A stretch of DNA of 64,000 bases from contig CAWJCN010000004.1 in NCBI GenBank assembly GCA_963841415.1, positions 403,038 through 467,037 on the forward strand, given 5' to 3'. The DNA comes from an uncultured Actinomycetes bacterium. GTDB taxonomy: Bacteria; Actinomycetota; Acidimicrobiia; IMCC26256; DASPTH01. The notes beneath the pieces were generated by a model, which was not told the origin of the DNA, searched no databases, and was given only the letters and a program-made list of their open reading frames with translations. Below are positions 1,857-18,603 of the stretch, one piece after another. The stretch's first letter is position 1; each line of letters starts with the position of its first letter. The position numbers and the translations under genes are program-made.

Positions 1857-1883
1857 CCGCCAATGAAATCGGAGGGGTGTGAC
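1857..1883 (-). promoter_or_regulatory. GTCACACCC-type promoter (putative -26 element plus weak -10, leaderless)
   Basis: GTC-ACACCCCTCCGA-TTTCAT-N6-ATG; same architecture as the sites before ligA and ORF 18604. Confidence 0.5.
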
Positions 1884-1937
1884 GCTCATCGGGCGGCGTG
1901 CGCGACGAGTGAGCGTCGGGCGCGCTCACCTCGGCGG

Positions 1938-3404
1938 CTACGAGCCGAGCTTCTGGTCGAGAAGTTGGTTGACGACCTGGGGGTTCCCGCTCCCCCGCAG
2001 AGCCTTCATGACTTCGCCGGTGAGGAAGCCGCGCTTCTTCTTCCGGACCTTGTCGTCGCCGGACCGATAGTCGGCGACCGCGTCTGCGTTGTCGGCGAGC
2101 ACCTGGTCGACGACGACTTCGATCGCGCCGGCATCGCTGACCTGCGCCAGGCCGCGCTCGGCCACCACCTGCTTCGGACGCTTGGCCTCGCTGAGGCACT
2201 CTCCGAGCACGTCCTTGGCCTGGTTGCGCGAGATGGTGCCGGCCTCGACCAGCCCCACGAGCTCCGCGAGTCCGTCGGGCGAGAGCGCGAGCACGACCGG
2301 CGACAGCCCGGTCTCGTTGAGGTGGCCGAGCACGTCGCCGTTGGCCCACTTCACAACGTCGCGCGCGGTGCCGCCGTCGAGCGCCGCGACCGCGGCCTCC
2401 GCATAGTCGGCGAGACCCTCGGTGCCGAGCAGGACGCGCGCTTCGGCGTCGCTGATCCTCCACTCGTCCTGCAACCGGGCGCGCCGGGCGGCCGGGAGCT
2501 CGGGCATCGACGACTGCACCGCGGCGCGCATGGCGTCGGTGGGCGCGACCGGCACGAGGTCCGGTTCCGGGAAGTAGCGGTAGTCCGACGACCCTTCCTT
2601 GGTGCGCATCGAGTGCGTGCGCCCGTCGGCTTCGTCCCAGTGGCGGGTCTCCTGGACGATGCGCTCACCGGCGTCGAGTGCAGTGGTCTGCCGCTCGATC
2701 TCGTACTCGATGGCCCGGCCGAGCGACCGCAGCGAGTTCATGTTCTTGACCTCGACCTTGGTGCCGAGCTCCGAGGCCCCGACCGGACGCACCGACACGT
2801 TGGCGTCGACGCGCATCGAGCCCTCTTCCATCTTGACGTCGGACACGCCGATGGCCTGGAGGACCGCGCGCAGCTCACTGACGTACTCGCGCGCCTGCTC
2901 GGCACTCTGGATGTCGGGGCGGCTCACGATCTCCATGAGCGGTACGCCGGCGCGGTTGTAGTCGACCAACGAGTGGTCGGCCTCGTGGATGCGACCTCCG
3001 CCACCGACGTGCTGCGTCTTGCCGGTGTCTTCCTCGAGGTGCGCGCGCTCGATCCCGACGCGCCCGCCGCCGACGTCGAGAGAGCCATCCACCGTGATCG
3101 GTTCGTCGTACTGCGAGACCTGGTAGTCCTTGGGCATGTCGGGATAGAAGTAGTTCTTGCGCGAGAAGGTCGACTGCTCGGGGACGCGCAGGTCGACAGC
3201 CTCCGCGAAGCGCAGCGCGTACTCCACTGCGCGCTCGTTGAGCACCGGCAAGGAACCGGGCAGGCCGAGGCACACCGGGCACACGTGCGTGTTGGGCTCG
3301 GCACCGAACTCGTTGGGACAGCCGCAGAACAACTTCGTCGCCGTCGCCAACTCGCAGTGCACCTCGAGCCCGATGACCGGTTCGTAACTCTCGCTCACGC
3401 TCAC
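1938..3404 (-). CDS. gatB: Asp/Glu-tRNA amidotransferase subunit B
   Basis: [44 protein letters not shown] start overlaps the gatA stop. Confidence 0.97.
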
Positions 3405-4816
3405 GACGACTCCAGCACGCGCGCCACTCGGAACATCACCGGCTCGCCCAGTGCCGGCGCCAACACCTGGACGCCGACCGGAAGACCCGCCTCGCCGGTG
3501 CCGTACGGCACGCTGATGGCGGCGTGGCCGGCCAGGTTGGTGGGGATCGTGCACACGTCGGAGAGGTACATCGCGAGCGGGTCGGCGGATCGGGCGCCGA
3601 GCTCGAACGCGACCGTGGGCGACGTCGGCGACAGCAGCGCGTCGAAGTTCTCGTAGGCGCGCGCGAAGTCGCGGATGATCAATGTGCGCACGCGCTGCGC
3701 TTGGCCGTAGAACGCGTCGTAGTACCCCGCCGAGAGTGCATAGGTGCCGAGCATGATGCGACGCTTCACCTCGGCACCGAATCCTGCATCGCGCGTCCGG
3801 GCGTTCATGGTGGCGACATCGTCGCCGTCGACACGGAGCCCGTAGCGCACGCCGTCGTAGCGGGCGAGGTTCGACGACGCCTCAGCCGGTGCGATCACGT
3901 AGTAGGCCGAGAGCCCGTAGCGCGCACTCGGCACGCTCACCCGGTCGACGGTGGCGCCGGCCTTCTCGAGCGCACGCGCGGCGCGGTCGACGGCGTCGAG
4001 CACGTCGGGCTGGAAACCGTCACCCTCGACCAGCTCGTCGACGATTGCGATGCGCAGCCCCTCGACGCCCCGGTCGACGACCGGGAGCAACGGCTCGTAG
4101 CGCGCGTCGATCGACGTGGAGTCCATCGGATCGTGACCGGCGATCACGTCGAGCAGCACCGCGGCGTCGCTGACCGTCGTCGCGAACGGACCGATCTGGT
4201 CGAGTGAGCTCGCGAACGCCACCAACCCATAGCGCGACACGAGCCCGTAGGTCGGCTTCACGCCGACGACGCCGCAGAGCGCGGCGGGCTGGCGGATCGA
4301 CCCGCCGGTGTCGGAGCCGAGTGCGAGCGGCGCGTACTGGGCCGCCACCGCGGCGGCCGAGCCACCGCTCGACCCGCCCGGGACGCGCGACGGGTCACGC
4401 GGGTTGCGGGTGGGACCGAACGCCGAGTTCTCCGTGGACGAGCCCATGGCGAACTCGTCGAGGTTGGTCTTCGCCACGGGGACCGCGCCGGCCGCGAGCA
4501 CACGCTCCACCACGGTCGCGGTGTACGGCGGACGCCACCCCTCGAGGATCTTCGACGAGCACGTGGTGGACACCCCTCGCGTGCAGAGGTTGTCCTTCAG
4601 CGCGATCGGCACACCGGCGAGAGGACCGGGGTCGTCGCCGCCCGCGACGGTGTCATCGATCCCGTCGGCGACCTCGCGCGCCGAGTCCGCCATGACGAGG
4701 TTGCAGGCGTTGAGCTCGCCGTCGCGCGCGGCGATGGTCGCGAGGTGCTCGTCGACAATTTCGCGCGCGGAGCGCGACCCGCCGCGCACCGCCGCCGCGA
4801 GCTCGATGGCGGTCAT
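3401..4816 (-). CDS. gatA: Asp/Glu-tRNA amidotransferase subunit A
   Basis: Amidase signature [11 protein letters not shown] and [21 protein letters not shown]; gatCAB order. Confidence 0.97.
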
Positions 4817-4893
4817 CCTCTTCCGCTCTCGATGCTTCGCAACTGCTCCACCTTCGGCGAGCTCAGGCCACGCTTCGCTGCGCTCGCGCTCAC
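4813..4893 (-). repeat. MIRU-like intergenic element encoding a 26-aa relay mini-ORF
   Basis: GTG overlaps the gatC stop (GTGA) and TGA overlaps the gatA start (ATGA); shares GCAGCGAAG(G)CGTGGCC with the elements at 25477 and 49837. Confidence 0.7.
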
Positions 4894-17359: not shown

Positions 17360-17369
17360 GCCGTCACCG

Positions 17370-18548
17370 TCACGCGGCGGTGCGTCGGAGCTGCGCCACC
17401 GCTCGTGGGACCACGTCCAGCGCGACGTCGACGTCGTGGTCGGTGGACGCGAACCCCAGGCTCAGGCGGATCGAAGCGAGCGCGAGGTCGCGCGGCAACC
17501 CGATCGCGGCGAGCACGTGCGACGGCTCGGTCGCACCCGAGGAGCACGACGAACCGGCCGCGCCGTAGACCCCGGCCTGGTCGAGCGCGACGAGCAGCGT
17601 TTCGGCCTCGACTCCAGGGAAACCGACGTGCGCGTTGCCCGCCACCTTCGCGGCGCGGTCGCCGTTCTCGAACGCGTCGGGAACGGCCGCGAGCAGGCCC
17701 TCGACCAGGCGGTCGCGGAGCACCGCCAGGCGCGCCACGTCGGCGGCCCGCTCGGCGCAGGTCACGCGCAGCGCCGCCGCCATCGCGACCGCACCCGCGA
17801 CGTTGGACGTGCCCGAGCGCAGGCCCCGCTCCTGACCGCCCCCTTCGATGAGCGGCTCGAGCGCGACCCCGCCCCGCACGACGAGCGCGCCGATGCCCTT
17901 GGGTCCGCCGAACTTGTGGGCCGAGACCGCGACGAGGTCGACGTGAGCAGTCGCGTCGGCCACGTCGATCCACGGCACCGCCTGGACCGCGTCGGTGTGC
18001 ACCACCACGCCGGGCACGCGCTCACGTACGAGGCACGCGATCTCCGCGACCGGTTGCACCGTGCCCACCTCGTTGTTCACGAACATCACCGAGACGACCG
18101 CCGTGCGATCATCGAGCGCGGCCACGATCGCCGCGGGGTCGACCACGCCGTTCGCGCCCGGCGCGACCCGGGTGACCCGGAAGCCCTCGACCGCGAGCCG
18201 GTCGCACGACGCCAGGACGCCCTTGTGCTCGAACGCGGTCGTGACCACACCGTCACCCGTGCCCGTGGCTCGGGCGGTCCGGGCGGCTCCCTTCACGCCG
18301 AGGTTGTCGGCCTCGGTGCCGCCCCCGGTGAGCACGACCTCGTCCGGCCGGGCGCCGAGCAGGTCGGCCACCTCCTCCCGGGCGGCCTCGAGGGCCGACT
18401 TGGCGGCGCGGGCCACCGCGTGGCCGCCGCTCGGGTTCCCGAACGTGGCGGCGAGGAACGGTGCCATCGCGTCGACCGCCTCGGGTCGGAGGGGCGTGGT
18501 CGCGGCGTGATCGAGGTACACGCCAACCGGCGTCGGCGGGCTGCTCAC
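17370..18548 (-). CDS. iscS: Cysteine desulfurase
   Basis: YLDHAATTP, SAHKFGGPKG, GSSCSSG; TACACT -10 box 6 nt before the GTG. Confidence 0.92.
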   Translation of the reverse strand: MSSPPTPVGVYLDHAATTPLRPEAVDAMAPFLAATFGNPSGGHAVARAAKSALEAAREEVADLLGARPDEVVLTGGGTEADNLGVKGAARTARATGTGDGVVTTAFEHKGVLASCDRLAVEGFRVTRVAPGANGVVDPAAIVAALDDRTAVVSVMFVNNEVGTVQPVAEIACLVRERVPGVVVHTDAVQAVPWIDVADATAHVDLVAVSAHKFGGPKGIGALVVRGGVALEPLIEGGGQERGLRSGTSNVAGAVAMAAALRVTCAERAADVARLAVLRDRLVEGLLAAVPDAFENGDRAAKVAGNAHVGFPGVEAETLLVALDQAGVYGAAGSSCSSGATEPSHVLAAIGLPRDLALASIRLSLGFASTDHDVDVALDVVPRAVAQLRRTAA

Positions 18549-18575
18549 CGTTCGAGTGTAGGGAGCCGGAATAAG

Positions 18576-18603
18576 TGTCACACCCCCCGGCGATACTCCT
18601 CGT
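18576..18603 (+). promoter_or_regulatory. GTCACACCC-type promoter of the small ORF
   Basis: TGTC-ACACCCCCCGGC-GATACT-N6-GTG. Confidence 0.55.

Follow-up and report, generated by a model that had tools for sequence, protein, structure and literature searches.

Predicted PafBC-type DNA damage promoters in an Acidimicrobiia genome, with copies inside its 23S rRNA group I introns

In mycobacteria, the regulator PafBC is activated by single-stranded DNA (ssDNA), with the helix-turn-helix (HTH) of PafB reading a GTC trinucleotide and that of PafC holding domain 4 of sigma-A, and the ssDNA-stimulated regulator is reported to adapt the sigma-A polymerase to promoters composed of GTC and a -10 element (PMC8635444). 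The cryo-electron microscopy structure assigns the reading of GTC to residues R46 and R50 and gives the motif as tGTCgg-N10-tA-N3-T (PMC8635444), and the form TGTCAC-N10-TA-N3-T has already been published as a PafBC variant of Mycobacterium tuberculosis (PMC8151990). Intron-internal promoters and hidden start signals are likewise known, from phage I-TevI and from eukaryotic rDNA introns (PMC3073962, PMC3943268). Further literature used here comprised PMC9411070 and bioRxiv 2021.08.05.455301. We analysed a stretch of 64,000 nucleotides (nt), referred to below as the window, from contig CAWJCN010000004.1 of assembly GCA_963841415.1, an uncultured bacterium of the class Acidimicrobiia with a genome of 4.6 Mb and 70% GC. 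An earlier note on this DNA had described a shared promoter motif ahead of three genes: ligA, an AbiEi/DUF559-type gene and a small gene of no assigned function. Very probably these three sites are copies of a genome-wide element, GTC separated by 12 nt from (T)ANNNT, that is likely a PafBC promoter, and the same sequence is carried by group I introns in the 23S ribosomal RNA (rRNA) gene, where it likely switches on homing endonucleases upon damage.

The three sites, at 1883(-), 13778(-) and 18577(+), are the sole exact matches to GTCACACCC in the window. They read GTC, 12 nt, TTTCAT, 6 nt and ATG in the first case, GTC, 12 nt, TAGATT, 7 nt and ATG in the second, and GTC, 12 nt, GATACT, 6 nt and GTG in the third, so that the spacings given in the earlier note were recovered identically at each. 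No full LexA box was found near any of them. Two of the hexamers had been pointed out as non-consensus, and they are not noise, for both are kept in homologues: TTTCAT in the six closest AbiEi/DUF559 relatives, GATACT in most loci of the small gene. Retention of TTTCAT suggests a weak -10 element dependent on an activator. Within the window the 9-mer is not enriched (24 matches with at most one mismatch, 24.3 expected), and the signal is genome-wide.

Across the genome GTCACACCC occurs 87 times, as compared with 28-48 copies expected under Markov models of orders 2-6, and in 12 of these 87 copies the 12-nt spacing leads to a TANNNT, with none at each of 16 other offsets tested; when the flank is ignored, the excess of GTC-N12-TANNNT is slight (112 as compared with 48-94; the genome is GC-rich). 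A 28-column matrix built from 44 training sites, all from this genome, was applied with a cut-off of 18 bits genome-wide and 12 bits for homologue loci. It has the consensus TGTCACACCC-N6-(T)ANNNT with an A/T-rich extension upstream, the final T of the hexamer being present in 43 of the 44 training sites, and it returns 45 sites, where five column-shuffled matrices return between 0 and 3. An ATG or GTG lies 6 or 7 nt past the hexamer in 30/45 sites and at most three times at any other distance from 0 to 20, which is the layout we would expect of leaderless transcripts, and we infer that most transcripts of the regulon are leaderless. The predicted leaderless ORFs (open reading frames) also share a feature at their other end, since 11 of 30 finish in AA, AS or AG compared with 5% of background ORFs (paralogues among them are not independent), and this suggests protease tags on damage-induced proteins.

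A candidate reader of these promoters is encoded in the genome. Its Pup-proteasome locus holds pafA, an ORF of 355 amino acids (aa), pafB, pafC, a signal peptidase gene, tatA, tatC and a helicase gene, and with this the HTH-WYL pair for which the earlier note had advised a check is accounted for. PafB and PafC match the solved PafBC structures 6SJ9 and 7P5X (E values from 7e-47 to 2e-22), and the PafB helix retains equivalents of R46, R50, K52 and R56. Of 30 PafB homologues, 26 have both R46 and R50, and the four that lack R46 come from genomes with 0, 0, 0 and 1 exact sites. These four proteins (loci L200, L206, L207 and L209, three of them from one genus) may read a different promoter. Among 121 genomes of the class the exact pattern is found in 89, with 513 hits as against 10 for a reversed control; it occurs in 84 of the 105 genomes with a pafB match (mean 4.8 per genome) and in 5 of the 16 without one (mean 0.6), 12 of these 16 belonging to one genus. 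In one family of genomes of about 1 Mb (f19), pafB is matched in 0/12 and the exact motif occurs in 2/12, as a single copy each. The PafBC/RecA-NDp reading first put forward in the earlier note is thus backed by the spacing, by the genes that follow the sites, by a pafBC locus encoding the arginines that read GTC and by the way motif and pafB occur together across genomes, and the motif is likely a promoter read by PafBC together with the housekeeping RNA polymerase.

We consider it highly improbable that the motif is instead a -35 box recognised by an extracytoplasmic function (ECF) sigma factor, or that some other regulator binds there. The sequence TGTCACA does resemble the -35 box of ECF41, and a third WYL gene, encoding a separate 342-aa HTH-WYL regulator outside the paf locus, lies in the window itself; against this, no conserved CGTC or GGTC -10 lies at a fixed spacer, a CGTC-type -10 being present in at most 3 of the 45 sites at any spacer from 12 to 20 nt, no palindromic operator was found at any of them, and the motif tracks pafB and its arginine. 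The ECF56 motif, in the form given in bioRxiv 2020.01.30.927608, is also different, and the spacing seen here equals that of the published PafBC motif (PMC8635444).

The regulon could in principle be real in the lineage and silent in this strain, as pafB changes frame near codon 238 in this assembly and runs into pafC. This, too, is very unlikely in our view: the out-of-frame part is still 58-73% identical to the PafB of relatives, with a stop that overlaps the pafC start, pafB is open over its full length in 28 of the 29 relatives fetched (the remaining one is shorter and near a contig end), isolated frameshifts of a similar kind occur in several related assemblies, and the promoters themselves show no decay. 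The frameshift is probably an assembly error. A naturally fused PafBC was considered as well and rejected, the 621-aa frame arising from the frameshift.

How far the motif belongs to this lineage is a matter of degree. The earlier note had called it a lineage-specific variant, which goes too far. The exact pattern averages 4.2 copies per genome in the class and 1.1, about a quarter, in other classes of Actinomycetota. The pattern is present in 61 of 139 genomes of those other classes (57 of 135 without four that are flagged as unpublished) and, as noted above, TGTCAC is on record for M. tuberculosis. In recA promoters of other classes GTC-N12-TANNNT is kept and the flanks differ.

The genes behind the sites fit a PafBC-type regulon. 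In 22 of 45 cases the site precedes a gene with a Pfam match acting on DNA or nucleotides, and the top-scoring of all is recA; besides ligA, AbiEi/DUF559-type genes and two LAGLIDADG genes treated below, this set comprises an SSB-like gene, rmuC, radA, a YifB/ComM-type ATPase gene, endonuclease VII, dnaB, uvrD, lhr, uvrB, two PD-(D/E)XK nucleases, a dGTPase, a DUF222-HNH gene and an integrase arm. At recA loci GTC-N12-TANNNT is found in 23/30 by hand count, and the matrix reaches at least 12 bits in 17/30, with 0/60 in controls. The scan of repair genes that the earlier note proposed came out divided: recA, uvrB and DUF222-HNH have the motif, and at uvrA, ruvCAB and the error-prone dnaE2 there are LexA boxes but no copy of the motif that scores highly. 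Both a LexA box and the motif are present at recA, and neither was found in the stretch scanned at uvrC, recN, mfd and polA. The interval between lexA and a divergent LysM-like gene has LexA boxes together with a motif copy facing the latter, and a comparable PafBC layout is reported for Rv2719c, which is divergent from lexA (PMC8151990). Two further observations concern the make-up of the regulon. Inside the proteasome operon, between pup and prcB, lies an endonuclease VII-type gene that carries a motif copy of its own, and the motif is found at the YifB/ComM-type ATPase gene, a ComF-like phosphoribosyltransferase-fold gene and rmuC (L008, L028 and L015), hinting at damage-linked DNA uptake or processing.

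Three of the 45 sites lie outside the window, in the 23S rRNA gene, of which a single copy was found in the assembly. Each occupies a different one of three group I introns whose insertion points we take to be after U1923, U1931 and U1951 (Escherichia coli numbering). All three match Rfam RF00028 (E values 6.5e-7, 0.0095 and 0.022) below its gathering score, two of them being split by an ORF. The first two introns have the tip of P5 taken up by promoter and start codon, and their ORFs encode LAGLIDADG endonucleases in leaderless layout (PF00961, E values 1.5e-22 and 2.5e-14); in the third, the promoter sits in an insertion past the R element and the ORF is reduced to an 18-codon remnant. If the usual splice site is assumed, the L1931 intron ends in A and not in G (L013:2048). 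Searches for endonucleases of this kind gave positives in 66 of 401 genomes of the class, 55 of 391 of the phylum and 58 loci from metagenomes, and the matrix reaches at least 12 bits upstream of 80 out of 110 hits, which stand for 88 loci (30 class genomes and 58 metagenome loci), a few being counted twice and four dropped for lacking upstream DNA. The spacing is equally sharp here: counting GTC-Nk-TANNNT in 121 genome-derived intron loops of defined structure gave 56 at k=12, and each other k gave 0-3. An outgroup search, in the phylum of an Alphaproteobacteria record (L092), found the intron in 2 of 371 genomes, neither with a PafBC or a proteobacterial LexA pattern, which is too few to generalise.

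The chromosomal sites might be PafBC promoters and the intron copies be kept merely as RNA structure, through a P5 hairpin of ACCC with AGGGT, or as ordinary sigma-A promoters free of damage control. We think this unlikely. In all three introns of this genome the motif does fold into a stem, and the hexamer seen most often in introns, TAGGGT, is able to pair with ACCC, yet a consensus fold of 57 P5 regions leaves the promoter columns unpaired and finds no conserved pairing there, even though TGTC and TA..T are conserved, and the same layout of GTC, 12 nt and hexamer recurs in L1951 introns within the P7.1-type insertion, a position that is not homologous. An intron-internal promoter without damage control is known in the late promoter of I-TevI (PMC3943268); in the introns studied here, however, the layout is absent from the 14 endonuclease rows of pafB-negative hosts, and in three of these hosts a LexA box is in its place.

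This last point follows from the pafB status of the hosts, tested for 43 genomes with intron loops. Among 83 endonuclease rows the PafBC layout is upstream in 27/35 from pafB-positive hosts, 0/14 from hosts with no pafB match and 29/34 from untested hosts; hosts are related and labels cluster on the tree, so the Fisher p of 5e-7 overstates the association and the counts are not independent events. Counted by genome with a looser pattern, 23 of 27 pafB-positive and 1 of 13 pafB-negative hosts have it. Endonuclease clades that show the layout belong to four insertion sites. Five introns from three hosts that are pafB-negative and lexA-positive (G122, G190 and G232, 97-100% complete) carry LexA boxes of the form CGAAC-N4-GTT(C/T) over a TATAAT-like element in the same loop, and the boxes resemble the hosts' own lexA operators. 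The remaining pafB-negative hosts mostly have short loops, several with a sequence like a ribosome-binding site ahead of a later start. The endonuclease tree is a quick version, used here without naming a donor or a sequence of events, and its motif pattern passed over two introns with a LexA box, L368 and one in L372.

Several observations weigh against the PafBC reading of the chromosomal and intron sites, in addition to the relatedness of hosts just mentioned and the training of the matrix on sites of the same genome. The frameshift in pafB is one. Just 19/45 hexamers fit TANNNT, the others being 17 VANNNT, 7 TTNNNT and 2 of other form, and 18 of the sites precede unannotated ORFs and five precede annotated genes with no DNA role shown. 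The motif is hairpinned in folds of single introns, 8 of 35 intron endonucleases of pafB-positive hosts have no such layout, both the PafBC layout and a LexA box are missing from 11 of the 14 rows of pafB-negative hosts, and the looser pattern gave one chance-like match among 18 loops of pafB-negative hosts. Finally, ligA carries the motif in a minority of relatives, and the M. tuberculosis ligA row in a published supplement is not mitomycin-induced (PMC8151990).

If the mycobacterial PafBC mechanism operates here too, DNA damage would induce repair genes, selfish nucleases and the small protein, for the most part as leaderless transcripts. Within an intron, the damage transcript would begin at the endonuclease ATG and so lack the 5' half of the hairpin, and in the pre-rRNA the same start codon would stay inside the folded P5 region. 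The endonuclease would then be made while recombination repair is also raised, and some hosts without pafB would reach the same timing through a LexA box over a TATAAT-like element. Homing is reported to need host recombinase and exonuclease activity (PMC3943268), and timing to damage would therefore favour the intron. On balance we think it probable that selfish group I introns of actinobacterial 23S rRNA have put their homing endonucleases under a host damage switch at four insertion sites, re-wired to whichever switch the host owns (PafBC with a leaderless start, or a LexA operator in some pafB-less hosts), with cutting timed to recombination repair; such wiring would account for the synthesis of a protein from within a bacterial rRNA intron.

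Coordinates of the predicted promoters, their genes and the other features discussed in the text are collected in Table 1.

Table 1. Features of the window and of related loci; plain numbers are window positions
Feature	Position	Strand	Remarks
PafBC-type promoter (predicted)	1863..1883	-	GTC 1883-1881, ACACCC flank, -10-like hexamer TTTCAT 1868-1863; 28.1 bits
PafBC-type promoter (predicted)	13758..13778	-	GTC 13778-13776, -10 TAGATT 13763-13758; 21.3 bits
PafBC-type promoter (predicted)	18577..18597	+	GTC 18577-18579, hexamer GATACT 18592-18597; 29.1 bits; divergent from iscS
AbiEi-domain / DUF559(MTES_1575)-type nuclease gene	912..1856	-	314 aa, predicted leaderless, C-terminal Ala-Ala; weak Pfam matches
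ligA, NAD-dependent DNA ligase	11660..13750	-	696 aa, predicted leaderless; Pfam
Conserved orphan ORF	18604..18864	+	86 aa; GTG start 6 nt past hexamer
Third WYL gene	27634-28662	-	
Tandem array	18866-19037		33 nt x 5.2, >95% identical
Tandem array	10421-10730		68 nt x 4.5, >95% identical
Three 23S group I introns	L013:529-1269, 1278-2048, 2069-2375 = G000 C1:845683-847529		one motif copy each
Motif copies in the 23S rRNA gene	G000 C1:845755, 846540, 847407		
LexA-box introns	L367, L368, L372		P5 loop of 23S introns
pafB with frameshift, running into pafC	L014:7465-9330		
Endonuclease VII-type gene	L014:13778-14233		
lexA / LysM-like gene interval	L011:469-534 and 601-1041		

The three genes of the window differ in how regularly their relatives keep the promoter. 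For the AbiEi/DUF559 family the matrix scores at least 12 bits upstream in 18 of 28 scored loci, with 0/56 in controls, and the motif is present at three of six paralogues in this genome. At ligA loci of the order GTC-N12-TANNNT is upstream in 11/30 and a matrix score of at least 12 in 4/30, and ligA is thus a patchy member of the predicted regulon. For the gene of the 86-aa protein, 46 of 52 loci score at least 12 (a count that includes this genome, one spurious hit and one truncated locus). Two tandem arrays are also present in the window, the first directly past this small gene.

The 86-aa protein has 66 close homologues, is present in 35 of 121 class genomes and has 1,242 representatives at 50% identity, with no family for it found in Pfam, NCBIfam, PHROGs or the PDB; its gene adjoins iscS in 34 of 51 loci. 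The motif was also considered as a promoter of methylmalonyl-CoA mutase and this was rejected, the small ORF starting 6 nt past the hexamer and mcm being present in just 31 of 51 homologue loci, which differ in length. The protein is composed of a QLRLV motif, a variable basic linker, a helix W.LD..TR..G..G.A.AR..L and a degron-like C-terminal Ala-Ser. A QLxL[VLI] motif is found in 137 of 150 listed representatives, compared with a background of about 0.06 per 1,000 residues, and 144 of the 150 end in AS or AA as against 4% of the background. The published clamp-binding motif is QL(S/D)LF, with variability allowed (PMC9690074), and a complex prediction with the DnaN of this genome scored 0.53, the best control reaching 0.16 (contact agreement at least 22%, partner predicted local distance difference test score at least 37). 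Of 157 solved complexes 116 attain this mark, as do 2 of 215 mismatched pairs, and with scores up to 0.60 it is attained by just 18 solved complexes and both mismatches; the pass may also mirror likeness to solved clamp-peptide complexes. We tentatively propose that the protein may be a short-lived sliding-clamp binder.

It is conceivable, if somewhat doubtful, that QLRLV(xGG) is rather a ClpX-binding motif like the XB of SspB and that the protein serves a protease as adaptor or substrate. The XB peptide has a sequence similar to LRLV, position 5 is V, L or I and never the F of QL(S/D)LF, and the AS/AA ending described above would suit such a role. XB is reported to bind ClpX at its zinc-binding domain (PMC12373786). 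Set against this are the Q of QLxL, nearly invariant beside an R that varies (QLSLI, QLVLI, QLQLL), and, weakly, the DnaN prediction. The predicted regulon also yields a new conserved orphan family, whose members, on the clamp-binder reading, may be short-lived brakes on the replication clamp.

The nearest likeness for this protein is with SocB of Caulobacter and other QL(S/D)LF clamp binders (PMC9690074), in that a small protein having a QLxL motif and a tail like a protease tag could compete for the clamp pocket; it differs in that no sequence similarity was found, the fifth residue is V, L or I, no partner antitoxin was seen and binding is weakly predicted. As to the promoters, their class is, judged by sequence, of the known PafBC/RecA-NDp kind. 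The Mycobacterium regulon (PMC8635444, PMC6789036, PMC8151990) is described with the same GTC, the same 12 nt to a sigma-A -10, pafBC after pafA, R46 and R50, and similar targets in recA, repair helicases and a gene divergent from lexA. The genome described here differs by a dominant ACACCC flank with the A/T-rich upstream extension, by many non-TA hexamers, by ligA as a target in part of the order, by uvrA, ruvCAB and dnaE2 with LexA only, by the copies in rRNA introns and by the small orphan target. No report of PafBC in Acidimicrobiia was found in the open-access literature; such a regulon would by itself be expected and ordinary, and the intron copies weigh more.

New here are these intron copies of the predicted damage promoter, with their proposed exchange between PafBC and LexA, the introns themselves being of known kinds. 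A search of the open-access literature, with subscription papers outside it, turned up no account of a bacterial rRNA-intron endonuclease controlled by a host damage regulator, and no description was found of endonuclease gene expression from within bacterial rRNA, unlike the situation in eukaryotic rDNA and phage introns. If the proposal is true, a damage promoter inside a ribozyme that is swapped for a LexA operator in pafB-less hosts would represent a mobile element adapting its regulation to each host. Known rRNA group I introns with LAGLIDADG genes (PMC1995217, PMC11270868, PMC3984707) are reported with the same kind of insertion site, a P/Q/R/S core and an ORF overlapping the ribozyme core, and the word 'promoter' is absent from the main texts of two of these papers; the introns described here differ in having a putative internal host damage promoter of PafBC type, or a LexA box, before a leaderless start. 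The td intron of phage T4 with I-TevI (PMC3943268, PMC3073962) is similar in design, with a promoter inside the intron and a translation start hidden in the structure of the precursor RNA. There, as those accounts have it, a phage late promoter and autorepression govern an intron in an mRNA, whereas here the predicted control is by a host damage regulator and the intron is in an rRNA.

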